A stretch of DNA of 64,000 nucleotides, taken from Candidatus Nomurabacteria bacterium (lineage in GTDB: Bacteria > Patescibacteriota > Minisyncoccia > Phycocordibacterales > UBA9973). Location of the stretch: the NCBI GenBank assembly GCA_016199805.1, contig JACQGC010000013.1:66327-130326 (forward strand), in the 5' to 3' direction. The position numbers and the translations under genes are program-made. The notes beneath the pieces were generated by a model, which made no database searches, had not been told where the DNA came from, and worked only from the letters and a program-made list of their open reading frames with translations. Below are positions 708-41,166 of this stretch, piece by piece (within the stretch, counting starts at the first letter, position 1; the number at the start of each line of letters is the position of its first letter).

Positions 708-1289
708 TTAATTCAAAGTTATTATTTTTTCGCCTAATCTATTTTTAAGTATGGCTTGATATTTTTCTAAATATACAATCTTTTCATTACCCACGGTATT
801 AAATAAAATTCGTGTAGAATAATCACAATCAACAAAATACTTTTGTAGTGGATTTAATTCCAAATCTCCGGTAATAATAAAGGGGTATTTAGAAACAAAA
901 TTAAAAATTGGAATATTTATTGTTTCAATGTTTTTCACAAAAATAATTCTATCCTTAACCAAAGAAGAGTTTGAAATTGCTTTAGTAAACAAGTCAGCAT
1001 CTCCGCTCTTAACAAATATTGTTTGAAACTTTGTGGCTTTCTCAAAATCGTTTTCAGATTCCAAATAAAAAACTGTTTCCGGATTTTCAATTTGTTTTAA
1101 AAATTCCTCTTTTGCCATGGGATATGCGGTAAACATAAGCAATTTTTTATCACCAACATGCAACATGGAAGCAATTACAATAGAAAGCAGAGACGCACCA
1201 GAGTGTTCTTTCCCATGTACCATCATTGGTAAATCTCCCTTTGTGAATTTTACCTCCTCTTTTGTTGAAATATTAATAATTTTCTTCAT
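708..1289 (-). CDS. hypothetical protein (193 aa), last gene of the ATPase/Cys-rich operon
   Basis: ORF only. No family recognised. 'VHGKEHSGAS' is only a weak P-loop-like stretch. Confidence 0.4.
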   Translation of the reverse strand: MKKIINISTKEEVKFTKGDLPMMVHGKEHSGASLLSIVIASMLHVGDKKLLMFTAYPMAKEEFLKQIENPETVFYLESENDFEKATKFQTIFVKSGDADLFTKAISNSSLVKDRIIFVKNIETINIPIFNFVSKYPFIITGDLELNPLQKYFVDCDYSTRILFNTVGNEKIVYLEKYQAILKNRLGEKIITLN

Positions 1290-1337: not shown

Positions 1338-3122
1338 TTAATAAACCTCCTGCTGATAACATTTTTCGCAATAGACTATTTCTCCAGAATCTGGACTATA
1401 CCCTGTCTTAAACTCTTCCCCGCACAGGGAATCTTTGTGTATGTGAGCTACGGTATTTTTGTATACCCCAGTTTCGTCGGTGTTTCCAACACACATGCAA
1501 GATCTTTCATACAATTTTATTCCAAGGCGCAATTTTAACCTTTCTGCTGTACGGCAAACGGGACATAATATGGGCAAGGGTGTATTGGTTTTTTTATAAA
1601 AATTAAGTTCATTATTTGTAACTCTAAAAGCCTTAGTGCAACCCTGATTGCATTTTACTTTGTGTGCACATTCAAAGACTTCACCAGTTATTGAATCATT
1701 AACATTGTGAATACTGTCAGGGATATCACCTACTAAAACTGTCGGGACATAGTTTTTCGTGTCCACATCCCTCCATCTATATCCTTTTGTGGTTGCTTCC
1801 TCTTTTGTCATCGGAAAATATTCTTGAGCGATGGTTTCGTTGTAAGCCCACGGACTGAATTCTATGGGAAAAAATTCTCCATATTTATATATTCTTCCTT
1901 TCTTGTCTACGTATGGCATTTCGTTCATATGTTTTTTAATTTTTTCAACCATATCAAAATATTCTTCCTTGGCATATTGCTTATTTAAAATACAATACTG
2001 ACTCTTTCTGAGAGAGACACATCCAAATATATTTTCACAACTTCGGCAACACACTGTGTACTCGGCATTGTGCGTGTTTTCTTGAGTTTGAACAGAAAAT
2101 TTTATATTTTGAACATTGGCTCCGCTTATCATTACCTCATACAGTAATTCTGCTCCTTCGCCCCAGTTGGAATAATCATAACTATCTTTTGCGCTTGGGG
2201 TAGCTTGTAAATACTGACAATAGCGTAGATTTTCTCCTTCCCTTACCAAGAAAGAATCTCTTACATTTTTTGAGTGGGTAATATATGAACCAGTGGAATT
2301 TATATTTTTAACACCTTGAATATTTTTATTTGGAAATTTTTTCCAAAAACTTAAAGCTTTCTCCCAAGCTTTTTCAACTCCCCCTCTGGTGTAAAGTTTA
2401 TACTCTTTTAATTTCTTTTCGTAATCTTCCTTGGTGCATTGTTCATTAAAAAAACAATAATTTTTATTGCGTAAGTTAACGCAGCCAAAACAATTCATAC
2501 ACCCTTGGCAATCCTTACAGAACCAGAGATCGCTTGATTCCGAACATTGTGAAGAATAGAACACTTTATAACTTGAAGTAATCCAAAAACTTTGGTAGCA
2601 CATTTCTGCCTTATCACAATGAGACATATCTACACAATCTTTTGAGTTATCAATTCCGTTAGAATACATGGAGTCCTCAGTCCAGTTGGAATTGAATATA
2701 AGATAAGAATTCTTGGGGTCGGTGGCATTATTTACATAATCACTATTTACACCCTTAATGACATTATTGCATCGGAGTGGCACTTCTCGCCACAAATCAA
2801 GCAATTGTGGCAAAAATGGCCTGGACCAATCAATATCTTTTCCATAATCCATCGGATTCCACACATCAGAGAGCCAAATATCTCGGTCATATACTTTTAC
2901 GGGAGAATCTGGAGCATACATAGAGAAAATTTCTTTGCCGGAAAAATCGCATTTTCTTTTATAGAGCCCCCGCTCATTGCGGAAAGCCCAACGTCTTTGC
3001 GCACGACATAGCGGGCAAAACGTCGGCGGAGGAACTTTCATCTTTTCGTAAAAGTTAAAATCTTCTTGGTCTATTACAAAGTCTTGCTTGCAGTTTTGGC
3101 ATGTTTTAGTTTCTTGGTTCAT
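1338..3122 (-). CDS. cysteine-rich repeat protein, paralog A (594 aa; terminal Zn-ribbon-like CxxC pairs at both ends)
   Basis: About 60 Cys residues. Repeated C-x-[DN]-C-x2-C-F-x-C-x2-L-R-N-K-x-Y-C-x2-N-x-Q-Y-x-K-E-E-Y modules. N- and C-terminal 'FYEK..P.P..CP.CR' motifs. Clear paralog of 9179..10837. Confidence 0.6.
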   Translation of the reverse strand: MNQETKTCQNCKQDFVIDQEDFNFYEKMKVPPPTFCPLCRAQRRWAFRNERGLYKRKCDFSGKEIFSMYAPDSPVKVYDRDIWLSDVWNPMDYGKDIDWSRPFLPQLLDLWREVPLRCNNVIKGVNSDYVNNATDPKNSYLIFNSNWTEDSMYSNGIDNSKDCVDMSHCDKAEMCYQSFWITSSYKVFYSSQCSESSDLWFCKDCQGCMNCFGCVNLRNKNYCFFNEQCTKEDYEKKLKEYKLYTRGGVEKAWEKALSFWKKFPNKNIQGVKNINSTGSYITHSKNVRDSFLVREGENLRYCQYLQATPSAKDSYDYSNWGEGAELLYEVMISGANVQNIKFSVQTQENTHNAEYTVCCRSCENIFGCVSLRKSQYCILNKQYAKEEYFDMVEKIKKHMNEMPYVDKKGRIYKYGEFFPIEFSPWAYNETIAQEYFPMTKEEATTKGYRWRDVDTKNYVPTVLVGDIPDSIHNVNDSITGEVFECAHKVKCNQGCTKAFRVTNNELNFYKKTNTPLPILCPVCRTAERLKLRLGIKLYERSCMCVGNTDETGVYKNTVAHIHKDSLCGEEFKTGYSPDSGEIVYCEKCYQQEVY

Positions 3123-3129
3123 CGTGAGG

Positions 3130-5316
3130 TCATTCTAAAATTTTAAGCAAAACATCTTCCGGCACTTCATTGGTGGGCTTCAGGGGCACTGGAGCTGGAG
3201 TAGGAATTGTTTCCTCCCCTCCTTTGGACCCAGTAGGTGATTTTGCTAAATCAGGATTGCTGCCAGCAGGCGGGGTGGTGATTTCTTTTTCTGGGGTGGT
3301 AATTTTTTCCGGTACAGAAATTTTTGTGGAAATCAAATCCTTTAATTTATTCATGTCTTCGGCGCTGGCAGCGCGGTCGCCTCGGGTAAATTGGTTTGCA
3401 GGTTTTGACGAAGCAACTTCTTTAATTTTATCTTTCAAGGAATCCAGCGAAATAGGGGCCGGAATAGGCGTCGGTACGGGTGCTGGTTTCTGAAGTGGCT
3501 CAATAATTTTCGCTTTTGGTTCAGCCATAACTTTATTCAAAACTTCTTTTAGAGCGGGATTTTCTTTTGGTTTTATCTGGGGTTTAATTGCCAAGCTCGG
3601 CGTAAAAGCTTTTTTAATAGTACCTATTATTCCGGGCTTGGGCGCCAAATTCACGAGTTTTGGCATTGTAACTACCGGTCTTACCGTCACAGGCGGTTTA
3701 CCTGTGTGGTCTTCTCTTTCATGATATCTTTCACCTTCTTCAACGCGACTTCTGTCTTTTTGCTCAAATTCAATACCTAGGTCTGCCAATGGCTTGTAAA
3801 ATTTCGTCTCATCGTACTTGATTTGGTCTTGACCCCTTTTTTCCACTTTCACTTCTCCGGATTTTATTTTAGCAATACAATCTTTGCAGTAAACCGGGCG
3901 TCCGGGCTCTGGTTTGAAAGGTACCGTCTTCTCCAAGCCACACAGAGAACACAGGATTTTAAACTTCTCCAAATTTCCACTGCTTATATCGCTGTCGTTG
4001 CCGAGAGACATTCCGCTCCAATTATTTATTTCTCTTTCGACTTCTTCCTTCGTTTTACAATAAAGCTTGCGCGAGGACTGTATCACTTCTTCTTCCACTT
4101 TTTTATCACCGGACTTTACCATCGGCGGCAAGGTCTTGGCTGAAAATGGGCGTGAGGTCACTCCGTCTATCATCAATTTCAAATAAACTTTGTAGTTCGG
4201 CAGATTCACGATGTCTCCTGGCGTAAACTCCGGGTCGAATTCGCTTTCCAAAAAGTCCGCGTCGTCGGAACCTACTCGGAAGACTATCATCGTGCCCACG
4301 TTGCCGAAAACCGCATCGCGCACCGCGGAGCTCTTGTCCATCACCAGCTGAGCCGTATACTGGTGCGCCACTGTGAGATTTAAGCGGTATTTTCGGGCCT
4401 CGGACAATATGCCGGCGAAAGCATCCGTCACGAAGTTTTGGAATTCATCCACATATAAATAAAAGTCTTTGCGGTGTTCCTCGGGTATGCGCACGCGTTC
4501 CATGGCGGCCAGCTGAATCTTGGTGATAATCATTCCGCCGAGTAAACTGGAATTGTCTTCACCGATACGCCCCTTGGAAACGTTGACCAAGAAAATCTTA
4601 CCGTCGTTCATGACGTCAAAAATATTGATGGTACTTACAGATTGGCCGACGACATTGCGAATGATACTGGTGGAAAGAAACTGCCCGACTTTGTTTTGAA
4701 TAGGCGCGATGGCTTCGTTTCGGAATTTATCCTGCCAAGCCTCGTATTCGTGCACCCAAAAAGCTTTGATGACCGGGTCTTTCAAATTACCGATTATTTT
4801 CTGGCGATAATCTTTGTCCACCAATAATCTCGGAATACCCAAAAGCGTCGTACCGGGAGTGTCGAGCAGAGCCAAAATACAATTGTTTAAAATATATTCC
4901 ATTCGGGCGCTCCAGGCATTGGCCCAAATCTTGGTGAAAATACCCATCAGCCCCGAGGCTACCAGGTGTTTGTATTGCGAGTCTACCAATTCGAGGACGT
5001 TGAAACCGACATGATACTCCGCATCGGCCGGGTTGAAATAAACCACGTCTTTGATGCGGTGCGGCGGTATGGCAGAGAGCACCCCTTCTACCAGCTCGCC
5101 GTGCGGGTCTACCACGCACACACCTTCGCCGTTTTGGATGTTCTGAATAATCATGTTGAACATCAGCACGGATTTACCGGTACCGGACTTTCCGAGGATG
5201 TAAACATGCTGGCGCCTGTCTTTGCGCTTGATGCCAAAAAGCTGATTGCGGTCGCGAAAAGTCGTCAAACCCAGGTAGGTAATGTCTTTATTTATAGGTA
5301 TTTCCGGGAGTTCCAT
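3130..5316 (-). CDS. TraD/VirD4/FtsK-HerA-superfamily P-loop ATPase (soluble, no N-terminal TM); C-terminal Zn-ribbon and Pro/Lys-rich low-complexity tail
   Basis: Walker A 'YILGKSGTGKS' followed by 'VVDPHGE'; Walker B 'LYVDEFQNF'; 'VAHQYTAQL' matches the coupling-protein Q..QL motif. 'CSLCG...PFKPEPGRPVYCKDC' forms a CxxC...CxxC ribbon. The last ~250 aa are P/K/E/T-rich. Confidence 0.6.
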   Translation of the reverse strand: MELPEIPINKDITYLGLTTFRDRNQLFGIKRKDRRQHVYILGKSGTGKSVLMFNMIIQNIQNGEGVCVVDPHGELVEGVLSAIPPHRIKDVVYFNPADAEYHVGFNVLELVDSQYKHLVASGLMGIFTKIWANAWSARMEYILNNCILALLDTPGTTLLGIPRLLVDKDYRQKIIGNLKDPVIKAFWVHEYEAWQDKFRNEAIAPIQNKVGQFLSTSIIRNVVGQSVSTINIFDVMNDGKIFLVNVSKGRIGEDNSSLLGGMIITKIQLAAMERVRIPEEHRKDFYLYVDEFQNFVTDAFAGILSEARKYRLNLTVAHQYTAQLVMDKSSAVRDAVFGNVGTMIVFRVGSDDADFLESEFDPEFTPGDIVNLPNYKVYLKLMIDGVTSRPFSAKTLPPMVKSGDKKVEEEVIQSSRKLYCKTKEEVEREINNWSGMSLGNDSDISSGNLEKFKILCSLCGLEKTVPFKPEPGRPVYCKDCIAKIKSGEVKVEKRGQDQIKYDETKFYKPLADLGIEFEQKDRSRVEEGERYHEREDHTGKPPVTVRPVVTMPKLVNLAPKPGIIGTIKKAFTPSLAIKPQIKPKENPALKEVLNKVMAEPKAKIIEPLQKPAPVPTPIPAPISLDSLKDKIKEVASSKPANQFTRGDRAASAEDMNKLKDLISTKISVPEKITTPEKEITTPPAGSNPDLAKSPTGSKGGEETIPTPAPVPLKPTNEVPEDVLLKILE

Positions 5317-5355: not shown

Positions 5356-5916
5356 TTATTCCTCGGGTTCGGTGCCTTCTCTTATCAACCTATTCTGCCT
5401 ATCTCTCAGCGCTTTCCAAGCTGCCAGTCTTTCTGCTTTTTGTTTTTCTTTTCTATCTTTCGCTCTTTTTTCCGCTGCCATTTTTTGCAATTCTTTTTCT
5501 TTCAAATCCTCGTTGCCGCCTTCCATTATTTCTTTTCTCGTTAGTCTTTTATATTCTGGTTTTCGTGCCAATGGAATGTTGCTTGATTCCGGAGCATCGA
5601 CCAAAGTATCTTTTATCTCGGTTGGGATAGTAGGTAAAATATCTGGGTCAGTTTTTAAATAATCCAATGCACGCATAATTCCTCCTTGAATTGACAAACT
5701 GGGAGAATTTTTGCCACTCAACCAACCCTCAACTACACTTTGAACTGTTCCGCCTGTGTCATTTTCTATAAAGCTCATTACGGCTTTTTCTCCATGTCTT
5801 TCCACAAGAGAATCAAGTTTGTTTTTATATGCAACTATCTCTGGATTCAAAGGACGCGGTTCTTCTTTCCTGCCTTTCCTTTGCGGTATTCCACCAAAAT
5901 CTCCTTTTTCGTTCAT
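5356..5916 (-). CDS. hypothetical K/E-rich protein (186 aa), tandem paralog 1
   Basis: Shares 'GGIP', 'NDTGGTVQSVVEGWL' and 'RKEIMEGGNEDLKEKE' blocks with the adjacent ORF 5925..6425. C-terminal Lys/Glu/Arg-rich predicted helix. Confidence 0.5.
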   Translation of the reverse strand: MNEKGDFGGIPQRKGRKEEPRPLNPEIVAYKNKLDSLVERHGEKAVMSFIENDTGGTVQSVVEGWLSGKNSPSLSIQGGIMRALDYLKTDPDILPTIPTEIKDTLVDAPESSNIPLARKPEYKRLTRKEIMEGGNEDLKEKELQKMAAEKRAKDRKEKQKAERLAAWKALRDRQNRLIREGTEPEE

Positions 5917-5924
5917 AAATATAT

Positions 5925-6425
5925 TTAACTTTTATTTTGCTCTATTAAAGTTTTTAACTTTTCTGTTATTTTTTGTCTTGCCCTCGCTATGTCTTTTTCT
6001 GTTTTCATTCTTAATTTTTCCCGTTCAATAGTTTTTTTTGTTATCTTTTTTAACTCTTCATCGTCTCCTTCCATTATAGCCTGCCACCTATGTTCTCTTG
6101 TCAGTAATTTTGGTTTTGGTTTAAACGGTAAAACACTTTTTATATTTGGCCGAAAATTTTCCAGGACAGAAATAACATCTCTGCAAATTCCCGGACTTGG
6201 AGTATGTTCGTTATTTAACCACCTTTCAACCACTATTGGGAGTACACCTCCTATAGTATTATTTTTTATGTATTTTATTATAAAGTCTCTGCTGTGTTTT
6301 TCTAAAAGAGAATTAAATAAACCCAAAAATTTAACCGTTTCTGGATCTGTCCGACGTTCTTGTTTAAAACTACTTCTTGGTGGTGGTATTTTAGGTATTC
6401 CTCCAATTTGTTGTCCTGGATGCAT
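5925..6425 (-). CDS. hypothetical K/E-rich protein (166 aa), tandem paralog 2
   Basis: Paralogous to 5356..5916 ('NNTIGGVLPIVVERWL', 'REHRWQAIMEGDDEELKK'). First gene after the dnaK terminator. Confidence 0.5.
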   Translation of the reverse strand: MHPGQQIGGIPKIPPPRSSFKQERRTDPETVKFLGLFNSLLEKHSRDFIIKYIKNNTIGGVLPIVVERWLNNEHTPSPGICRDVISVLENFRPNIKSVLPFKPKPKLLTREHRWQAIMEGDDEELKKITKKTIEREKLRMKTEKDIARARQKITEKLKTLIEQNKS

Positions 6426-6490: not shown

Positions 6491-8404
6491 TTATGCTTTT
6501 GGTGCTTCGCCTTCCGGTGGTTTTTCTTTGAATTCTGCGTCTTTGGCATCCACGTGCTCTGCTTCTGATGCTCCGGCTGGGGCTTCTGTGCCGCCTGCTG
6601 GTGCACTTTTCGCCATCGCCTCGCCTATCTTGGACATTTCAGCAGACAGTTCTTCGGTGGCTTTCTTTATGGCTTCGCCGTCGGTACCATCTTTTACTCC
6701 TCGCACAGCTGTGATTTTTGCATTTACACTATCTTTCAGCTCGGCAGGAATTTTGGCTTCATTGTCTTTCAGCGCTTTTTCTGCGGTATAAATAATCATC
6801 TCCGCGGTGTTCTTTATATCCACAACTTCTTTTTTCTTTTTATCTTCTTCAGCATGTAGTTCCGCATCAGCCTGCATTTTCTTGATGTCTTCGTCTTTCA
6901 GGCCGGAGCTCGCTTCTATCTTTATCGATTGAGTCTTGCCGGAAGCTTTGTCTTTGGCGGCGACATTTAAAATACCATTTACATCCACATCAAAAGAAAC
7001 TTCGATTTGCGGCATACCGCGAGGTGCCGGCGGCACTCCGTCTAAAATGAATCGTCCGAGAGATTTATTGTCGGAAGCCATGGGCCTCTCCCCTTGCACG
7101 ATATGTATTTCCACAGAAGTTTGATTGTCGGCAGCCGTAGAAAATACTTGAGACTTACTGGATGGAATAGTGGTATTTCTTTCAATAAGTTTTGTCGCCA
7201 CGCCACCTAATGTTTCGATGCCCAAGGAAAGTGGAATAACATCTAGAAGCAAAACATCTCGCACGTCTCCTTGCAATACGCCAGCTTGAACCGCGGCGCC
7301 GAGAGCTACGACTTCATCCGGGTTGATAGTCAGATTTGGAGTCTTGCCAAAAACTTTTTTCACTTCTTCCACAATTTTAGGCATTCTCGTCTGCCCACCC
7401 ACCATGACTATTTCGTTTATGTCTTCAATCTTGATGCCGGAAGCCGCTAAGGCACGCTTGGTGATGTCTATGGAGCGGGACACATATTCGTCAGCTAGGG
7501 ATTCCAGTTGAGCACGGGTCATTTTGAGGAGCAAGTGTTGGGGACCCTGTGCCGTAGAGGTTATAAACGGAATATTGATTTCACTTTCCACAGCTGTAGA
7601 AAGTTCTATTTTTGCTTTTTCTGCCGCTTCATCCAGACGTTGCAAGGCCAACTTGTCTCCCCGCACATCTACACCAGAAGTCTTTTTGAATTCTTCGGCA
7701 ATCCAATTTATTATTTTGAAATCTATATCGCGGCCGCCCAAGTGACTGTCACCATCGGTGGACTTTACCTCTATGACATCGTCTCCAATTTCGAGCACGG
7801 AAACATCAAAAGTTCCGCCTCCGAAATCGTAGACAACTATCTTTTCGTTTTTCTTTTTGTTAAAACCATATGCGAGCGCCGCGGCCGTCGGCTCGTTGAT
7901 TATTCTTTTTACATCCAATCCGGCGATTTGTCCTGCGTCTTTGGTGGCCTTTCTCTGGGCATCATTAAAATATGCCGGAACGGTGATGATGGCTTCGGTG
8001 ATTTTTTCTCCGAGCTTGGTTTCCACGTCGGTTTTTATCTTGGATAAAATCATGGCCGAAATTTCTTCCGGGCGCATCCATTTGTCACCTATCATTATTT
8101 CCACTCCGCCATTTGCCCCTTTTTGTATTTTAAATGAGGAATTTTTTAAATCTTTTTGAACTTCCGGGTCGTCAAAATTGTGACCCATAAAACGCTTGAT
8201 ACCGTAGACAGTATTTTCCGGATTGGTCACTGCCTGCCTTTTGGCCAGCAAGCCGACGATTCTGTCGCCATTTTTAGCCACAGCTACGACAGATGGCGTA
8301 GTGCGGTTTCCCTCCACATTTTCAATAATTTTCGGCACACCGCCTTCAATGACAGCCACTGCCGAATTTGTTGTACCCAAATCTATACCTATTATTTTTG
8401 ACAT
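6491..8404 (-). CDS. dnaK: molecular chaperone DnaK (Hsp70)
   Basis: '[15 protein letters not shown]', '[10 protein letters not shown]', '[15 protein letters not shown]'; full-length 637 aa. Confidence 0.97.
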
Positions 8405-8516
8405 AATTAATTTTACTTATTTAGGCTTATAATCCCGACGTTTCAGTCGGGACCCGACCATAAAGCGTCGGATTTTACTAATGTTTCGCGACCACTGAAA
8501 ACTTGTATAAAGAGAG

Positions 8517-8544
8517 TATATATGATAAGTTGTAGGTATGTCAA
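8517..8544 (-). promoter_or_regulatory. near-consensus sigma70-type promoter for dnaK (TTGACA-16 nt-TATATA on the minus strand)
   Basis: Reverse complement of 8517-8544 reads 'TTGACAtacctacaacttatcaTATATA'. It lies ~105 nt upstream of the dnaK ATG and directly abuts the inverted-repeat element. Confidence 0.5.
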
Positions 8545-8615
8545 GCCCGAACACTTACTTTCAAGACGCGCCATAGGCGCATTGTACTCAATATCTTAAA
8601 AGTAAGTGTGCGGGC
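8545..8615 (+). repeat. 71-bp inverted-repeat/hairpin element, copy A (17-bp arms, 36-nt conserved loop)
   Basis: Arms 'gcccgaacacttacttt' / 'aaagtaagtgtgcgggc' pair at 16 of 17 positions. Loop 'gcgccataggcgcattgtactcaatatc'. The element ends 11 nt before the ATG of the regulator gene and is a homolog of 17236..17306. Confidence 0.7.
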
Positions 8616-8626
8616 AAGCAAAATTT

Positions 8627-9178
8627 ATGAACAATTCTTACACAAAGAAAATATTGGAGATATTGGGGAAGAAGCCAGCTGTTTCGGTGGAAGAAATACA
8701 GGAACAAATCATTTCACCCCACCTTAGTCCTCCCCTTCGCAGGGGAGGAGAAACTCGATCAAAATACGCTATCACTCGCTGCCTGAAAAATCTTAGCGAC
8801 GAAGGGCTGATAGAGCAGATTTCTTCTCCGCAAAATAAATACGCGCGTCTGACAAATGAGGGACGAAAAAAAATGCACAGTTTGGAATTGGATAACGATA
8901 CTGGCATAGTAAATACTTCTTGGGATGGACTTTGGAGAATTATTTTACTCGACCTGCCAGAGAACAGAAAAAACGAAAGAGAAAGCCTGCGTTACCTGCT
9001 TAAAAAAGCCGGTTTCGTCTGCCTGAAAAATTCCGCCTGGATATCCCCTTTCCCTTTTGAACATTTATTTATGAATATAAAAAAAGATTTAAATCTCACC
9101 ACCGAGATGATGATAATAGTCACCGAAAACATTGACCCGGAAAGTAAAAAAGTTTTGTTTGAGAATTTTGGGAAATAA
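8627..9178 (+). CDS. PaaX-like winged-helix transcriptional regulator (short form)
   Basis: N-terminal wHTH-like 'YAITRCLKNLSDEGLIEQ'. C-terminal 'WDGLWRIILLDLPENRKNERESLRYLLKKAGFVCLKNSAWISPFP' resembles PaaX_C. The ATG at 8627 is preferred over the in-stem GTG at 8606. Confidence 0.45.
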   Translation: MNNSYTKKILEILGKKPAVSVEEIQEQIISPHLSPPLRRGGETRSKYAITRCLKNLSDEGLIEQISSPQNKYARLTNEGRKKMHSLELDNDTGIVNTSWDGLWRIILLDLPENRKNERESLRYLLKKAGFVCLKNSAWISPFPFEHLFMNIKKDLNLTTEMMIIVTENIDPESKKVLFENFGK

Positions 9179-10837
9179 TTATGCGATATTTTGTTTATAA
9201 CACTCCTCACAGGCTATTTTTTTATAACCCCATTCAGGCGGATAATAGGCCATCATCTCTTTTTTACAGTAAAAACACTTATACGGGTAACCTTTTAGTA
9301 CTGCAGTCTTTCTGGCTTTTTTAAGCATTCTTAAGTCAAAATGGATTCTTGGCAAAGCAAAACCCTTCCTTTTGTGAAATTCATATTCAGCCGGAGAAAT
9401 ATTGAATCTGTATTTCGTCTCGGGGCAAATAAGAGCTTGGCTTGAAACATCAGCACCAGTATCCAAGATACTATCCGGCAACTCTAGCGAAGAAATCCCA
9501 TCTTGCGATGACAAGTCTTCTTCCGACCAGTACCCTCCTTTGCTTAAAATGAATTCCTTTTTTACTTCAGGGAAATAAACTATTGCGGTAGACAAATTAT
9601 AATCACAGATTCCCATTGAGTATGGTAAGAATTTACCGTATTCTCCCCTCTTTTCCATATCGGAAATAATTTTATTTTTCAAACTTTCATATTCTTCTTT
9701 GCTATATTCTTTATTTAAAATACAGTATTTTTTCTTTTTCAGCCCAACACACCCAAAACAATACTCGACTTCGTCGCAAATATCGAGATATTCGGAATAT
9801 CTGCCAAGAGACCATGATGAATGCTTCACATTATAGGAATAAAGCACACAACTGTTATTTCCAGAGTTTTCTACGGCGCCGAATATTCCCATCCCGTCTA
9901 TGCAATCTTTATTGCCAAGACCCCGAAGCTGGTTGCGGCAATTCTGCGAATCTTCGTAAGAAAAAACATTGATGCATTTATCGCAATTGGTCAAATAATT
10001 TCCGACAGAATTTGTGGTTTTTAGATTGAAATTTTCTCTATGTATTGCATCTTCTTTTAAAATGCTTTCAAATTCAGATTTTAGTGTTTCAATTTTTTTA
10101 TTTGAATTAAGCCCGATATTTTTCAGTTCTTTTTCGTAATCGTCTTTAGTATATTGTTGGTTGCGTATGCAATATTGTTTGTTGCGCAAGTTCCATGACA
10201 TAAAGCAGTTTTGGCAATTGCGACAATCAAAAAGAAAATACGAATCTATGCAGTCTTTACAATTTTCAGAATAATTTATGCCAAATGAGTTATGACAAGC
10301 AAAACAATCATAACAATTTTGCAAATTGAATGAATTTGCCACATCAAAGGAATCCTTGCATTCTATTACTCTATACCCATAGCTCAAATCCTCACATTTA
10401 AAAATTGACCGGGTAAGATAACAATTCTTTGAATACCAGACATCATCGCACCAATCGCAATTTTTATTGTCTTTACCGACTTGATGAGGACGCGGAACTT
10501 TTTCTTGAAGCTCTTTCAGTTGTTCAAAAAACGGCCTTGACGAATCATAGTCCTGCCCGAAAGACATCGGGTCCCAGGCATCGCTCCACCATTCGTGGGA
10601 TTTATAAATAGGATATCTGGGGCTGTTTGGTAATATCGTTATAATACTTTCACCGGATAAATCTGAAGTTCCTTTTCTAAATTTTCCAAACGGCCAAAAA
10701 GCAGAATATTGTTTCAGCCGGCAGAAAAAACATTGCTCTGGAATCTTCAAACCGACTTTTTCATACAAAAGCAAATCGCCCGAATCTATTTCAAATTCAT
10801 TTTCGCAATCTATGCATTTTTTAGTTTCAGTTTTCAT
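9179..10837 (-). CDS. cysteine-rich repeat protein, paralog B (552 aa)
   Basis: Same architecture and motifs as 1338..3122 ('NCYDCFACHNSFG', 'LRNKQYCIRNQQYTKDDYEKELK', terminal CxxC pairs). Inserted between grpE and dnaK. Confidence 0.6.
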   Translation of the reverse strand: MKTETKKCIDCENEFEIDSGDLLLYEKVGLKIPEQCFFCRLKQYSAFWPFGKFRKGTSDLSGESIITILPNSPRYPIYKSHEWWSDAWDPMSFGQDYDSSRPFFEQLKELQEKVPRPHQVGKDNKNCDWCDDVWYSKNCYLTRSIFKCEDLSYGYRVIECKDSFDVANSFNLQNCYDCFACHNSFGINYSENCKDCIDSYFLFDCRNCQNCFMSWNLRNKQYCIRNQQYTKDDYEKELKNIGLNSNKKIETLKSEFESILKEDAIHRENFNLKTTNSVGNYLTNCDKCINVFSYEDSQNCRNQLRGLGNKDCIDGMGIFGAVENSGNNSCVLYSYNVKHSSWSLGRYSEYLDICDEVEYCFGCVGLKKKKYCILNKEYSKEEYESLKNKIISDMEKRGEYGKFLPYSMGICDYNLSTAIVYFPEVKKEFILSKGGYWSEEDLSSQDGISSLELPDSILDTGADVSSQALICPETKYRFNISPAEYEFHKRKGFALPRIHFDLRMLKKARKTAVLKGYPYKCFYCKKEMMAYYPPEWGYKKIACEECYKQNIA

Positions 10838-10866: not shown

Positions 10867-11481
10867 TTATTCAACCTTTTCTTTGAATTCATATACATTG
10901 ACTCTGGCTGGGCGGATGACTCTATCGCCGAGCTTGTAACCCTTTTGGATGACGTTGGCCACGGTGTGCTCAAGTTCTTTTTTGTCTGTCTCTACCACGT
11001 CTATGGATTGATGAACATTCGGGTCAAACGGTTCGCCAACTTCACCTATCGGCTTGACCCCGTATTCCTCAAAAATGTTGTTCATCTGCGTGTAGATGTA
11101 TTCCACCCCTTTGCGCCAAGAATCATCCACCTTTGCCCAAGCTTCTTTGTTGGCAAAAGCCATATTGAAACTGTCTACCACCGTCAAAAACCGGGTAAGC
11201 ATCCTCTCCCGCAAACCCTCGGAAAAAATAGCCCTTCTCTCATCTTCTTGTTTTTTGTAATTGATAAAATCCGCCCGCTCCTTCTGCCAGCCGGTAAGAT
11301 ATTCTTCTTTTTGTTTTTGCGCCTCTTTCAAATCCGCCCGAAATTTCTTTAAAGTTTTCTTTAAATCCTCTTCTCCGTCGTCATTGAATTCAAACTCCAA
11401 AACCTCCGACTCAGCAGAGTCGTCCCGAGCAGCCTCGAGGGGTATATTCGTATCTTCTTTTTTCTCTTCCTCGTCTGCCAT
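10867..11481 (-). CDS. grpE: nucleotide exchange factor GrpE
   Basis: 'RERADFINYKKQEDER', 'VVDSFNMA', 'VIQKGYKLGDRVIRPARV'. Confidence 0.9.
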   Translation of the reverse strand: MADEEEKKEDTNIPLEAARDDSAESEVLEFEFNDDGEEDLKKTLKKFRADLKEAQKQKEEYLTGWQKERADFINYKKQEDERRAIFSEGLRERMLTRFLTVVDSFNMAFANKEAWAKVDDSWRKGVEYIYTQMNNIFEEYGVKPIGEVGEPFDPNVHQSIDVVETDKKELEHTVANVIQKGYKLGDRVIRPARVNVYEFKEKVE

Positions 11482-11520
11482 TTATACAATATAGCATAAA
11501 AACAACCTCTTCCCAACCCT

Positions 11521-13221
11521 TTAGATTTTGTTTCTTTTTCTTTTATTAAAGAATAATACCGTCATGCCGAGCAATACGAGAATCGCAAGAATTTGTAGCA
11601 AAAACTTCCAAGTGAGTGAACTAATTCCAAAGATAACATTAGCCGTCAAATTATTTCCCTTATTTTCCGACGGAATTGTATTTTCGGAAACCGTATTCTG
11701 GTTTTTAACACCCAAATCTGGCAACTTACCTGAGCGTGTCACAATCGCGCCATTCTTTACATTTTCATTTACGTTATCTGCCACAACAATGTTATTTGTT
11801 GCAACGTCGCTATTTGTCACCACGCTTTCAACTAATGGCTCTGCTATTACCGTTGGAGTATTTATATCTACACTAGTTGCTGGTGAGACAAAACTTTCGG
11901 AAAGAAGTGGAGCTCCACCATTGACTACTGGAGGTATGTTTTCAGTTGGAACAACCGGGGATACTGTGTAGATTTCCGTCATAATCCCAGAGGAATTTCC
12001 AATTTTGTCAAAAGCCAAAGCTTTAAGCGTAAAACCTTTATCAACTAAAATTCCGGAGCTAGCAACATATAAAGTGGAAGAAATAGTCGGGTCCGACCCG
12101 TCTTCCGTATAATAAATCGCGTCTAAATTATCATCAACTGATGTCAAAAAAACATTTATATTATTTTTATAATCCCCTCCTTTTTGGTCAGCGATGGGAA
12201 TCGTCGGCACCGTGGTGTCTATTGGGATAGGTTCAATATATATTGCTTGCCCCCAAACTTCATCAGGCTCTCCGTAAACATCCAAATATGGTCTGACGTA
12301 TTTTTCATCACCAACAACAGTATAATTATTTCCTGTTCCACACACACTACCAGCCGTTTGGCGTCCGCAAATCCATTTTATTCCACGATTTGTGATTTCA
12401 GTCGCGTCCGTTTCACTGACTTGGAATCTAGCCGTCAAAGTATTACCATTTTGAGTAACTCGTAATGCACCCGCTATTCTATCAACCTGCCCTCCACACT
12501 GGGCTCCGTTGTAACAAACATTTGCACCATAAAAATTTCCAGCTTTAAAGTTGGCCATTATGTCAGAAAGAGAATCGGTCGGACTGTTCACAAACATTAC
12601 CGCAGCATATTCATGTTGCCAAGAATACATATCGTTTCCACCCACACCTAGCCATTTTCTACCATTGAATAATCCGTTATCCCACATATCCCAACCTATA
12701 TATCCTTGACCATTGTATGTTTCAATTCCATCAATATTTGTCAGTGAAGAAACATTAGACCATGTCATGTTTGTAAAGCTAGGGTGAGGAATGATAGAAA
12801 TACCACCCTGTGACTTAATCATGTCTAGACCATCTTGAATCGATGTACGAGCAGTCCACGAGGTGCATCCTATACAAATCAAATGTGGATTATCGGTTAC
12901 ATCTTCATAACCAGGCAGGTAATATTGACCGGGGTGATTTCCCGGGTCTGCCGTCACCACATCCTTATCGTTTATGGGAACAACTTTTACATTCAAAGCT
13001 GACGCTAAGGTAAATAATTGGTCGGGGGTAGCAGCATCTGCGCCAGTGACAGTCGTATGGGTATGACTAACTATGCCGTACCAATTTGAGTAAGGACCCG
13101 CGCCATCTGCCCCATTATATGGGTTTATAATTTTGAAATTAGGTTCAACTGCATTAGCAAATCTTGCCGAAAAAAAAGAGAGAATTAGAACCAAAACCAA
13201 AAATAAGTTTATTTTTTTCAT
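11521..13221 (-). CDS. secreted, C-terminally membrane-anchored PHP-like metallophosphoesterase with CHB_HEX_C/Fn3-like domain (tentative)
   Basis: Signal peptide 'MKKINLFLVLVLILSFFSARFANA'. His motifs 'VSHTHTT' and 'IPHP'. 'IYYTEDGSDPTISSTLY' is a CHB_HEX_C-like motif. C-terminal TM 'LLQILAILVLLGMTVLFF'. The start was moved to the internal Met because the upstream ATG lies in the terminator hairpin. Confidence 0.4.
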   Translation of the reverse strand: MKKINLFLVLVLILSFFSARFANAVEPNFKIINPYNGADGAGPYSNWYGIVSHTHTTVTGADAATPDQLFTLASALNVKVVPINDKDVVTADPGNHPGQYYLPGYEDVTDNPHLICIGCTSWTARTSIQDGLDMIKSQGGISIIPHPSFTNMTWSNVSSLTNIDGIETYNGQGYIGWDMWDNGLFNGRKWLGVGGNDMYSWQHEYAAVMFVNSPTDSLSDIMANFKAGNFYGANVCYNGAQCGGQVDRIAGALRVTQNGNTLTARFQVSETDATEITNRGIKWICGRQTAGSVCGTGNNYTVVGDEKYVRPYLDVYGEPDEVWGQAIYIEPIPIDTTVPTIPIADQKGGDYKNNINVFLTSVDDNLDAIYYTEDGSDPTISSTLYVASSGILVDKGFTLKALAFDKIGNSSGIMTEIYTVSPVVPTENIPPVVNGGAPLLSESFVSPATSVDINTPTVIAEPLVESVVTNSDVATNNIVVADNVNENVKNGAIVTRSGKLPDLGVKNQNTVSENTIPSENKGNNLTANVIFGISSLTWKFLLQILAILVLLGMTVLFFNKRKRNKI

Positions 13222-13263
13222 AAAATACATATTACATGATAATATGTATTTTGTCAATACACA

Positions 13264-13290
13264 AAAAAGCATCCATTTCTGGATGCTTTT
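13264..13290 (-). terminator. rho-independent terminator after rpsI
   Basis: Perfect hairpin 'aaaaagcatcca-tttc-tggatgcttttt'. Confidence 0.65.
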
Positions 13291-32902: not shown

Positions 32903-32979
32903 TTTGTGCGCCGGGTTGGACTCGAACCAACGATGCCCGAAGGCCGGGGATTTACAGTCCCCTGGAATAGCCGCTATCC
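32898..32979 (-). tRNA. tRNA-Tyr (anticodon GTA), long variable arm, no encoded CCA
   Basis: Minus-strand cloverleaf. Acceptor GCGCCGG/CCGGCGC. Anticodon stem GGGGA/TCCCC with loop CTGTAAA. Variable arm GGCCTTCGGGCATC. T-arm GTTGG-TTCGAGT-CCAAC. Confidence 0.8.
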
Positions 32980-32988
32980 GACCGGCGC

Positions 32989-33345: not shown

Positions 33346-36012
33346 TTACGCTATTGATTTAGCTCGCACATGGATTGAGCTCTTCACTTTTCCTTTCTTG
33401 GCTTCAATCAGGAGCTCATTGCTTTTTACTGATACGGCTACCATATCTCCTTTTTTAACTCCATTTGAAATGATGAATGATGCTACGGGGTTTAATATTT
33501 TGTTTTGTATCAAGCGATTGATTGGGCGCGCTCCATAATGCGGGTCGTAGCCCTCCTTGGCCAAGTAGGCCAGAGCTTCTTTGGAAATTTCAAACTCAAT
33601 TCCCTTGCCGGAGAGCCTATCTACCACAACTTTTATTCTAAGCTTTACTATCTCGGCAATAGCTTCCGGTGAAAGCACATCAAAAACAATAGTTTCATCT
33701 AAGCGGTTCAAAAATTCCGGACGGAAATTGTCTTTCAACGCTTCCATTACTTTTTCTTTCATATTGCCATAATCGGCTTTCGGAGAATTATTGGAAAAGC
33801 CTATGGATTCCATTTTTTCCACAAACTGCGAGCCGATATTGCTGGTCAGTACAATGATGGTGTTTTTGAAATTCACCACTCTACCCTTGCCGTCGGTCAA
33901 CCGGCCTTCATCAATCACAGACAAAAGTATATTAAAAACTTCCGGATGGGCTTTTTCAATCTCGTCAAAAAGCACCACAGCATATGGCCTGTGGCGGACG
34001 GCTTCGGTCAATTGGCCCGCTTCGTCGTAACCCACATATCCCGGCGGAGAACCTACAAGTTTGGATACGGAATGGCGTTCCATGTATTCGGACATATCCA
34101 CGCGAATAATGGCATTGTCGTCGTTGAACATAAACTCCGAGAGCGCTTTGGTGAGCTCAGTCTTACCGACTCCGGTCGGACCCAAAAAGATAAATGAACC
34201 GATTGGGCGGTTTGGGTCTCCGATACCCGCACGTGAACGGCGGATGACATCTGAGACGCGTTTAATGGCCTCTTCTTGACCCACAACTCTTTTCTCCAAT
34301 TCGGACTCCATTTTTTCAAGCTTGGCGCGCTCTTCTTCGAGCATTTTGGTCAGCGGTATACCTGTCCAGCGCGCCACCACCTCGGCTATGTCTTCAGCGT
34401 TGATTTCTTCTTTCAGAATTCGGCGGGATTTTTGAAGTTTCTTCAGCTTGGTAAGCTTTACCTCAAGATCTTTTTTGAGAGTTGGAATTTTGCCGTAGCG
34501 TATTTCGGCCGCACGCGCGAGGTCAGCCCGCATTTCGGCATCTTCCGCTTCCAGACGGATACCTTCAAGCTCTTTTTTAACAGCACGAATTTCCATCACG
34601 GTTTCTTTTTCGTTTTTCCATTTTAACTCGAGCTCTTTTGTTTTTTCCGATAAATTTCCTATTTCTTTGTCTATTTCTTTAATTCTGCTTTTTATTTCAC
34701 TGGTAGAAATTTCTTTTTTCAAAGCTTCTTTCTCTATCTCTAGGCGCATTATTTTTCGGTGCGCATCCTCCAAGACCGGTGGCTTATTTTCAAGCATTAT
34801 TTTGAGTGACGAAGAAGCTTCGTCGATGAGATCCACCGCCTTGTCCGGCAAAAATCTGTTGGTGATATATCTGGAAGAAAGGTTGACTGCCGAAATTATT
34901 GCGTCATCAGTAATACGGATACCATGGAAAAGCTCGTATTTTTCTTTCAGCCCGCGAAGAATGGCAACAGTATCTTCAATACTCGGCTCGTCTATGTAGA
35001 CGGGCTGAAAACGCCTAGCTAAAGCAGGGTCTTTCTCTATATGTTTTTGATATTCCCGCAATGTTGTCGCGCCAATGGCCCGCAGTTCTCCGCGGGACAA
35101 TGCCGGCTTGAGCATGTTTGAAGCATCCATCGTGCCCTCTGCGCCTCCGGCGCCGACGATGGTGTGAATCTCGTCAATAAAAAGAATTATCTTGCCGTCA
35201 GACCTTTCAATTTCTTTCATTATACCCTTTAGTCTTTCTTCAAATTCTCCGCGATATTTTGTGCCGGCTACCAAGAGCCCCAAATCGAGCGAGACGATTT
35301 CTTTTTCTTTCAGAGATTCCGGCACATTGTTCTTGGCAATCATTTGCGCCAAGCCCTCTACTACGGCTGTCTTACCGGTACCCGCCTCGCCTATCAAAAT
35401 CGGATTGTTTTTGGTCCTACGCGAAAGTATCTGCATGATGCGAGTTATCTCGCCATCGCGGCCTATCACTGGGTCGAGCTTGTCTTCGTGGGCGAGCTTC
35501 GTCAAATTGCGGGTATATTTTAAAATCAATTTGTATTTTTTGGGTTCAGAGACATCGGTAATATTTTGACTGCGGAGTTCTTCCAGCACTTTCATCACTT
35601 GATCTTTGTGAATTCTAAACCGCGCCAAAGTCTCCCGCGCCTCGCTCCCAACCTCCAAAATAGCGACAAAGAGATGCTCTGTCGAAACAAAATCATCTTT
35701 CATGTATTCCGCGAGTTTAGCCGACTGTTCTATGACTTGCGCCAAATCCGGGTTCAAATAAATCTGATATGAAGGCGAAATGGTGTTGCGGGTTTCGGGC
35801 TGCTCAATCAATTCCAAAACGGAATCAGTCAGAAGCATGGTGTCGATTTCCAGTTTATCCAAAATGGAATTCACCATTGATTCATCTTGCAAGAGCAGTG
35901 CCGCAAGCAAGTGCAGTGCGGAAACATGATTTACCCCACGCTCAATAGCCAGCTCGTGGGCTTTTTTGATGGCATCTTTGGCTTTAGTTGTAAATTTATT
36001 TAATGGTGGCAT
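33346..36012 (-). CDS. clpB: ATP-dependent chaperone ClpB
   Basis: Two AAA+ modules ('[15 protein letters not shown]', '[18 protein letters not shown]'), long middle coiled-coil, Clp N-domain; 888 aa. Confidence 0.95.
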
Positions 36013-36108
36013 GATGTTTTAGTTAAAAGTTATAAAGTTTTTAAAGTTATAAATAATCTTACTTTACGAACTTTCTACTCTTGTTATTATACACTATGTG
36101 TCAAGAGG

Positions 36109-40626: not shown

Positions 40627-40698
40627 GGCCTGGTAGCCAAGTGGTAAGGCATTCCTCTGCAAAAGGAATATACGGCGGTTCAATTCCGCCCCAGGCCT
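40627..40698 (+). tRNA. tRNA-Cys (GCA)
   Basis: Acceptor GGCCTGG/CCAGGCC. Anticodon stem TTCCT/AGGAA with loop CTGCAAA. T-arm GGCGG-TTCAATT-CCGCC. Confidence 0.85.
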
Positions 40699-40814
40699 CA
40701 AAAAATTAAATAATTTTAATTTTTTGCTGGTTCGCCGGAGGCGAAATTGCCGATGCGAGACAAGGTCGAGCAGGCAATAGGAAAAGAAGTATGTTAGAAT
40801 ATTTTAGGATTATT

Positions 40815-40896
40815 GCTCGGGTGGCGGAATTGGTATACGCGTTCGACTTAAAATCGAATCTCGCAAGAGGTATGGGTTCGACTCCCATCCCGAGCA
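40815..40896 (+). tRNA. tRNA-Leu (TAA), long variable arm
   Basis: Acceptor GCTCGGG/CCCGAGC. Anticodon stem TTCGA/TCGAA with loop CTTAAAA. T-arm ATGGG-TTCGACT-CCCAT. Confidence 0.85.
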
Positions 40897-40918
40897 CCGG
40901 TGTTTTTTAAAAAAATAT

Positions 40919-40991
40919 GCGCCCATAGCTCAGCTGGTAGAGCAGATCCCTCTTAAGGATAAGGTCGTTGGTTCGATCCCAACTGGGCGCA
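40919..40991 (+). tRNA. tRNA-Lys (CTT)
   Basis: Acceptor GCGCCCA/TGGGCGC. D-arm GCTC-AGCTGGTA-GAGC. Anticodon loop CTCTTAA. T-arm GTTGG-TTCGATC-CCAAC. Confidence 0.85.
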
Positions 40992-41026
40992 CATTGACTA
41001 GGAAAGGCCTAGCATTAAATAATTTT

Positions 41027-41108
41027 GGGCGAGTGGTGTAATTGGTAAACACGCCAGTCTTAGGAACTGGTGGCGCAAGCCGTGAGGGTTCAAGTCCCTC
41101 CTCGCCCA
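41027..41108 (+). tRNA. tRNA-Leu (TAG), long variable arm
   Basis: Acceptor GGGCGAG/CTCGCCC. Anticodon stem CCAGT/ACTGG with loop CTTAGGA. T-arm GAGGG-TTCAAGT-CCCTC. Confidence 0.85.
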
Positions 41109-41166
41109 CAAAATAGTGGAATATAGCAGACTTGACATTTATGGCACAATATGCTATACTTCACAC

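Follow-up and report, generated by a model that had tools for sequence, protein, structure and literature searches.

The 64,000-nucleotide stretch of the Candidatus Nomurabacteria contig JACQGC010000013.1 that was analysed here (positions 66,327 to 130,326, referred to as the window) contains one copy of an expanded Hsp70 locus that is found clade-wide in the Nomurabacteria/Paceibacteria, within the Candidate Phyla Radiation (CPR). Between grpE and dnaK of this locus lies a divergently oriented gene for a small PaaX-like protein without an effector domain. This protein is probably an autorepressor of the dnaK operon that would act through a conserved 36-bp palindrome, and the neighbouring gene for a large cysteine-rich (Cys-rich) protein, protein B, would be read from the grpE promoter. 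This reading is built on the gene order, the conservation of the palindromic site, its fixed spacing and its overlap with promoter-like hexamers.

The original prediction, made from the letters of the window, described a grpE-dnaK pair interrupted by a gene for a Cys-rich protein and by a divergent PaaX-like gene, and the open reading frames (ORFs) confirm this layout (Table 1). The regulator gene diverges from dnaK and lies tail-to-tail with the gene for Cys-rich protein B, the stop codons of the two abutting at 9178/9179. The locus was compared with 81 related loci (numbered with an L), 80 of which were retrieved from 228 matching species genomes and one through a protein look-up. The query for the scan of the genome collection was an alignment of regulator orthologs, and genes were mapped in the loci by tblastn. 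The general order is grpE, zero to four Cys-rich genes, the PaaX-like gene on the opposite strand, dnaK, a VirD4-like ATPase gene, zero to three further Cys-rich genes, often a second and shorter ATPase gene whose product is 44% identical to the first, and dnaJ. In 67 of the 81 loci, the PaaX-like gene lies beside dnaK in divergent orientation. In the remaining 14, dnaK is split, partial or off the contig, with the sole exception of L077. On its other side the regulator faces grpE, again tail-to-tail. Where both grpE and the regulator are present (58 loci), the Cys-rich copies between them number zero (27 loci), one (11), two (14), three (5) or four (1). The regulator between grpE and dnaK is a constant feature of the locus, and the Cys-rich copy beside grpE is frequent but optional.

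A further regularity of the clade is found in the spacer between the regulator gene and dnaK, which could be extracted from 74 loci and was set in one orientation for comparison. In the common architecture, the start codon of the regulator lies within a TTGACAT motif and is followed by an AT-rich block with -10-like hexamers on both strands, and then by a 36-bp palindrome with the clade consensus TTGACAAGTATTTCGTG-AC-CACGAAATACTTGTCAA. All 74 spacers contain the palindrome. When ~1.2 Mb were scanned with a position weight matrix, the window and 79 of the 81 loci each had a single site, and no others turned up; in none of the loci did the scan place a palindrome upstream of grpE. Of 80 sites, 74 are 27-28 nt away from the ATG of the regulator. 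Additionally, metagenome contigs were scanned for the exact pattern. Among the matches listed, which cover at least 120 contigs, 120 of 120 sites adjoin the regulator and/or dnaK, and the palindrome also stands beside regulators that are just 47-50% identical. In many relatives, a TATAAT box follows 16-17 nt past the palindrome, whose right arm doubles as the -35 box of a second promoter. The core of the candidate operator looks inverted between the window and L001 (GACC vs. GGTC), but this is apparent only and is explained by the non-palindromic central dinucleotide.

Within the 64-kb window the palindrome occurs once. It begins 5 nt past the TATACT -10 box in the dnaK promoter-like site, which is conserved in relatives, and lies 27-28 nt from the ancestral start codon of the regulator. 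The remnant of this start (ATGTCAAGC, 8536-8544) is, in complement, the TTGACA -35 box of the dnaK promoter. A dimer of the regulator would most likely bind the palindrome and thereby repress the dnaK operon, consisting of dnaK, two small ORFs, the ATPase gene, the gene for Cys-rich protein A and a 193-aa ORF. The same binding would repress the gene of the regulator itself. Such an action would be like that of HspR or HrcA, exerted by a protein of another family at a single target site. Relief of the repression by chaperone titration or by intrinsic lability is a guess in either case.

A palindrome so close to a promoter might also act mainly as RNA, by forming a 5' hairpin of the dnaK transcript that serves stability or translation, in which case the PaaX-like protein would regulate something else or nothing nearby. 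In the window subgroup, the palindrome is downstream of the only recognisable dnaK promoter and hence would be transcribed, and the dnaK leaders of the clade carry various other hairpins, both of which are in line with a function of this kind. It is distinctly unlikely nonetheless, because the palindrome arms are conserved in sequence, beyond pairing, and 23 loci have an A at position 14 opposite a G, which breaks the pair. Moreover, where the right arm is the -35 box of the second promoter, the palindrome would not be fully transcribed, and the fixed spacing to the regulator start fits a shared DNA control region. The palindrome region also matches no Rfam family: searches of the window at the gathering threshold, of positions 8380-8680 with E up to 10, and of eight related loci returned only tRNAs and one chance miRNA match. 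As a separate observation, the dnaK leaders past the palindrome contain at least five different lineage-specific structured inserts, for example twin CCGAC hairpins and, as another, CCCCGATTATCGGATCGGG followed by a T-run. These inserts, which have no Rfam family match, are found at 8434-8471 of the window and in four sets of loci (L013/L014/L016/L027/L031/L035/L050; L012/L044/L083; L026/L066/L078; L034/L058/L062).

The original prediction had placed the site of action of the regulator elsewhere, in an inverted repeat adjacent to its gene (8545-8615). The repeat exists. Its 22-nt arms (8545-8566 and 8594-8615) are 91% complementary, and the 71-nt hairpin folds at -38.2 kcal/mol (z = -5.8). Its length and great stability, and its position between dnaK and the present start codon of the regulator, speak for a regulatory site. 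Its distribution speaks against one. When aligned with the closest loci, the window has ~83 extra nt between the ancestral start and the remaining regulator ORF. This insertion, which contains the hairpin, is missing from L004, L043, L007 and L009, and in L010 the corresponding place is taken by another GC-rich hairpin. Because the insertion is lacking in the closest relatives, the hairpin is not a conserved operator; the element that the clade conserves is a different sequence, the palindrome at 8474-8509. In addition, the window has no further copies of the arms, and so there is no evidence there for a multi-copy mobile element. Action of the regulator through this repeat is therefore extremely improbable. 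The other part of the claim, control of dnaK and of the regulator itself, fares better in view of the position of the regulator beside dnaK across the clade.

The insertion provides the present regulator ATG at 8627. The old ATG now starts an 11-codon ORF (MSSPNTYFQDA) with its stop inside the hairpin, and the TTGACA box on the dnaK strand is left intact. The insertion is recent and has displaced the start codon of the regulator, and the hairpin may affect regulator translation in the window lineage. Different GC-rich hairpin-forming inserts are present right after codon 2-3 of the PaaX-like gene in L010 (~8990-9040), L030, L059, L037, L047, L076 and L077, and they share their position with the 83-nt insertion of the window. 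Such inserts would mean either that this spot takes up insertions repeatedly or that selection maintains a structure here, where the mRNA, probably leaderless, has its 5' end.

The regulator is 100% identical to NCBI HY311_03185 from a Candidatus Nomurabacteria metagenome-assembled genome. Its relationship to PaaX is indicated by Pfam PF20803 (PaaX_M, Cas2-like), which matches residues 104-181 of the 190-aa version at E 6.1e-19, with 68.3 bits vs. a cut-off of 24. In the AlphaFold2 model, helices and a beta-hairpin wing at residues 3-87 (pLDDT 70-87) form a winged helix-turn-helix (wHTH). The best PDB fold match found with Foldseek is PaaX of E. coli W (8a39), and PadR/MarR wHTH proteins were matched as well. 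At the sequence level, Pfam HTH_24 and MarR matches stayed below their cut-offs, and PDB sequence profiles gave weak MarR-type matches only. The PaaX_C effector domain has no Pfam match, and the protein ends at residue 183, right after PaaX_M. Its length is identical in all 16 aligned orthologs, in which conservation is much higher in the C-terminal Cas2-like half, with ~60 invariant positions, than in the wHTH half. The score for the PaaX equivalog TIGR02277 is 34.6 bits, vs. a cut-off of 264.55, and no paa genes were found among the annotated window ORFs or in the related loci.

The uneven conservation of the two halves, together with a faint PADLOC CARF match (E 0.009), would also fit a protein that is not a transcription factor and whose Cas2-like domain is a nuclease or half of a toxin-antitoxin-like module. 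This is very improbable. A wHTH is present, the gene has no partner gene, and its strict pairing with a palindrome at a fixed distance is what would be expected of an autoregulated DNA-binding protein. Moreover, the same domain in the characterised PaaX is the dimerisation module of the repressor (PMC9493321).

The proposal that the regulator is an autorepressor of the dnaK operon has a number of observations to contend with. In L077, 1.6 kb on the dnaK side of the regulator are without dnaK. On the short contig L033 (640-840), the region upstream of a PaaX-like gene with 70% identity lacks the palindrome and the usual promoter block; this gene may be a rearranged or second copy. The palindrome of the window subgroup is degenerate, with 12 mismatches to the clade consensus, and no regulator residues co-vary with the operator subtype (maximum mutual information 0.28 bits). 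The model of the regulator as a whole is of low confidence (pLDDT 62). The palindrome is absent at clpB (33346-36012) in the window, and the site therefore does not define a general heat-shock regulon. A crude motif search of the window and the loci found no hrcA. With regard to the Cys-rich genes, nearly half of the loci have no copy beside grpE. In addition, in a more distant Paceibacteria genome (L002 and L003, 6481-17656), a short VirD4-like ATPase gene and six tandem Cys-rich paralogs of 551-581 aa are away from the chaperones, with no grpE, dnaK or PaaX-like gene nearby. Finally, we infer the DNA binding, repression and heat inducibility of the regulator from sequence.

For Cys-rich protein B, co-transcription from the grpE promoter and heat-shock regulation had been suggested. 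The first suggestion is consistent with the close junctions between the two genes. They are 29 nt apart in the window, with no terminator-like site predicted in the gap. Of 31 loci, 18 have a grpE/Cys-rich junction of -14 to +13 nt, a length typical of a single operon. In 20 of the 31, moreover, the Cys-rich copy adjoining grpE is orthologous to protein B. Cys-rich protein B is thus most likely encoded by the second gene of a grpE unit. Heat-shock control of this unit through the PaaX-like regulator finds no support, as a palindrome lies upstream of grpE in none of the loci. Overall, the earlier interpretation is partly supported: it was right in outline and wrong on the operator, and regulator-dependent control of the grpE unit is without support. 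No terminator is predicted in the window at the abutting stop codons of the Cys-rich B and regulator genes either, and it may be speculated that transcription started at grpE could cross the regulator gene antisense and reach dnaK. The grpE ATG lies 7 nt past its -10 box, and the grpE mRNA may be leaderless. In both grpE and the ancestral PaaX-like gene, the start codon is found 6-8 nt after a -10-like box, which suggests that leaderless mRNAs may be common in the organism of the window.

The Cys-rich proteins A and B were described as diverged paralogs, and a pairwise alignment over the full length bears this out (30% identity, E 7e-70). Each protein has 33 cysteines, and invariant CxxC...CxxC pairs are found at the N- and C-termini (C8/C11/C36/C39 and C521/C524/C543/C546). 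The family comprises 3,085 clusters at 50% identity (E up to 0.001), which are annotated as hypothetical only, and each paralog is 55-89% identical over its 120 best clusters. An internal duplication relates residues 199-240 to residues 348-388 (E 4e-7). In the AlphaFold model, which is a confident one (pLDDT 86.7, pTM 0.86), the ends are helical and Zn-ribbon parts, and the modules between them are solenoid-like and built of short strands; for Cys-rich protein B terminal treble-clef Zn ribbons are predicted to flank two tandem beta-solenoid modules. The terminal modules match treble-clef finger models weakly, in 11 and 8 of 50 family members (best E 3.7e-4). A Foldseek search of the PDB gave no match below E 0.3, the weak matches being to left-handed beta-helix and ice-binding solenoids, and the search of BFVD gave only local matches to the terminal Zn ribbon, including phage 'zinc-ribbon domain proteins'. 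For the ~450-residue core, no match was found in Pfam, NCBIfam, PADLOC or PDB sequences, or among PDB/BFVD folds. Based on these results, the Cys-rich proteins are inferred to be cytosolic and predicted to be Zn-ribbon-capped beta-solenoids without a known structural relative. Their function as DnaJ substitutes was considered and is ruled out by the genuine dnaJ, with KYHPDK, that is present downstream in 26 related loci; a J domain with an HPD motif was also not detected in them by the Pfam DnaJ model.

The ATPase of the window is matched by the Pfam families TrwB_AAD_bind (40.4 bits, cut-off 20.5), T4SS-DNA_transf (28.1, cut-off 20.1) and TraG-D_C (24.4, cut-off 22). It has an internal CxxC-x17-CxxC treble-clef finger (family match 3e-12) and a long Pro/Lys-rich tail. 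Its scores for the NCBIfam type IV coupling protein (T4CP) equivalogs are all far below the cut-offs, and PADLOC yields generic HerA/mad8 P-loop matches only. Genes for VirB4, other components of a type IV secretion system (T4SS) or a relaxase were not found among the window ORFs scanned. Across the related loci, the ATPase gene comes after dnaK in 42 of 54 cases. The dnaJ gene directly follows dnaK in 8 loci, which are those with the most divergent regulators, and comes only after the ATPase/Cys-rich block in 18 loci. Because dnaJ follows that block, the ATPase/Cys-rich module is nested inside a grpE-dnaK-dnaJ operon, and the link between the ATPase system and proteostasis that had been proposed for the window finds comparative support.

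VirD4-like genes usually go with conjugative elements, and the Cys-rich genes and ATPases could be passengers that have no functional connection with Hsp70, either an expanding gene family or what is left of a mobile element. The variable number of Cys-rich copies, including the many loci with none between grpE and the regulator, and the arrays of L002 and L003 apart from the chaperones fit this explanation. It is unlikely, however, given that each paralog is strongly conserved across species, in more than 100 clusters each, that orthologs hold their position, with the B type beside grpE, and that junctions are tight or overlapping. In addition, the block occupies the interval between dnaK and dnaJ, and no relaxase, integrase or VirB4 was seen among the matches in the loci. 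A 2025 survey counted 5,713 VirD4-like genes across 2,918 genomes of Patescibacteria, no more than 148 of them near virB4; most patescibacterial VirD4 homologs are away from it and may be exapted (PMC12102498).

The stable positions, the tight coupling and the link to two VirD4-like ATPases suggest, with modest confidence, that the Cys-rich proteins and the ATPases constitute a machine that works with Hsp70. The position-specific orthologs and the nesting in the Hsp70 operon likewise point to Cys-rich proteins that would act together with the ATPases and need DnaK or help it. A more comprehensive proposal can be put forward only tentatively and may well prove wrong. According to it, the Paceibacteria would possess an unrecognised Hsp70-coupled machine of ancient, position-specific Cys-rich paralogs and two soluble, T4SS-independent VirD4-like ATPases. 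This machine would be built into grpE-dnaK-dnaJ and switched by a class of truncated PaaX repressors with a single dedicated 36-bp operator.

Table 1. Genes and sequence elements of the Hsp70 locus, in window coordinates.
Feature	Position	Strand	Basis or remark
grpE	10867..11481	-	Pfam GrpE 1.3e-38
Cys-rich protein B, 552 aa, 33 Cys	9179..10837	-	ORF
PaaX-like regulator, 183 aa	8627..9178	+	PaaX_M; alternative GTG start at 8606
dnaK (Hsp70)	6491..8404	-	Pfam HSP70 2e-243
Two tandem small ORFs	5356..6425 (5925-6425 and 5356-5916)	-	Between dnaK and the ATPase
VirD4/TraD-like P-loop ATPase	3130..5316	-	Pfam
Cys-rich protein A, 594 aa, paralog of B	1338..3122	-	Directly downstream of the ATPase
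193-aa ORF, function unassigned, last in the co-directional block	708..1289	-	ORF
grpE promoter-like site, TTGGGA-17-TATATT, TG before the -10	11488..11516	-	Sequence
~83-nt lineage-specific insertion at the 5' end of the regulator gene	8545..8627	.	Alignment with relatives
Remnant of the ancestral regulator start, ATG TCA AGC = MSS	8536..8544	+	As in relatives
dnaK promoter-like site, TTGACA-18-TATACT	8515..8544	-	11/12 consensus matches
Conserved 36-bp palindrome, candidate operator	8474..8509	.	Clade comparison
Two short GC-rich hairpins in the dnaK leader	8434..8471	-	Common to the closest relatives L004 and L043 only

Among the remaining genes of the locus, the two small ORFs between dnaK and the ATPase encode paralogs of 166 and 186 aa that are 31% identical and have no family match; a match to them was present at only 1 of the 81 related loci (L015). 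In relatives, the position of the 193-aa ORF is taken by the second ATPase gene; the idea that the ORF is what is left of such a gene was dropped, as the two show no similarity. Upstream of grpE, a 583-aa protein (11521-13272) is encoded between rpsI and grpE. It has CHB_HEX_C_1 and Fn3_assoc domains, a hydrophobic segment at the N-terminus and a membrane anchor at the C-terminus; in L001, grpE comes directly after rpsI. Farther away, just upstream of clpB (36078-36107), an inverted repeat, CTCTTG-N18-CAAGAG, encloses a TTGACA box and a TATAAT-like box; it is unlike the palindrome at dnaK and could serve as a control element of its own. The tRNA genes of the window form a four-gene cluster (Cys, Leu, Lys, Leu; 40627-41109), with tRNA-Tyr apart at 32906-32988.

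To our knowledge, almost no regulation is experimentally known in CPR bacteria, which have tiny genomes. A regulator-operator pair that is kept in hundreds of species and tied to a central chaperone gene offers a testable entry to stress control in these organisms. The regulator-operator pair and the nested module appear to be undescribed in the literature searched, in which nothing was found that links PaaX-like proteins to dnaK or describes heat-shock regulators or HrcA in the CPR. A PaaX-type regulator with its own palindrome, together with Cys-rich and VirD4-like genes in an Hsp70 operon, points to an undescribed control and use of Hsp70. Moreover, one class of orphan VirD4-like ATPases is found embedded in an Hsp70 operon with a large uncharacterised Cys-rich family. 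If the functional tie is real, orphan VirD4 homologs of the Patescibacteria would serve proteostasis or chaperone-assisted assembly or translocation, rather than conjugation. The locus also holds a caution for reading from sequence, in that its most striking inverted repeat is a recent insertion, while the candidate for function, 36 nt away, is a palindrome that is degenerate and attracts less notice.

The window proteins can be compared with several known systems. The coupling proteins VirD4/TraD and the window ATPase have a TrwB/VirD4-type P-loop domain in common. In contrast to them, the window ATPase has no T4SS genes seen in its locus, carries a Zn finger and a Pro/Lys tail, and is linked to dnaK and to Cys-rich paralogs. 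The zf_Tbcl and zf_Tbcl_2 families (PF13451, PF23477; TIGR04272, CxxC-x17-CxxC) resemble the termini of the Cys-rich proteins weakly and the ATPase finger clearly, and models of this type cover just ~35 residues at each end of the Cys-rich proteins. PaaX, where it has been characterised, represses its own promoter, binds to a palindromic site and is in competition with RNA polymerase (PMC9493321). The PaaX proteins of E. coli and Pseudomonas (PDB 8a39, 3L09), which respond to phenylacetyl-CoA, share the wHTH and the Cas2-like middle domain with the window regulator. They are ~310 aa long with a PaaX_C effector domain, whereas the window regulator is without this domain, has dnaK as its partner and no paa genes nearby, and has a candidate operator of different sequence.

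With respect to its place in the genome, the window regulator is most similar to two repressors of the heat-shock response. HspR is a MerR-type repressor that is encoded in the dnaK operon of Actinobacteria and acts at HAIR (CTTGAGT-N7-ACTCAAG). HrcA is encoded upstream of grpE-dnaK-dnaJ in many bacteria and acts at CIRCE (TTAGCACTC-N9-GAGTGCTAA). The window contains no match to the CIRCE consensus with up to 3 mismatches and none to the HAIR consensus with up to 2. Like HspR/HAIR and HrcA/CIRCE, the locus combines a small putative repressor gene in the Hsp70 operon, a palindrome at the dnaK promoter and presumed autoregulation. In contrast to both, its site is found at one place per locus and not at clpB, and the putative repressor comes from an unrelated protein family and is encoded on the opposite strand, between grpE and dnaK.

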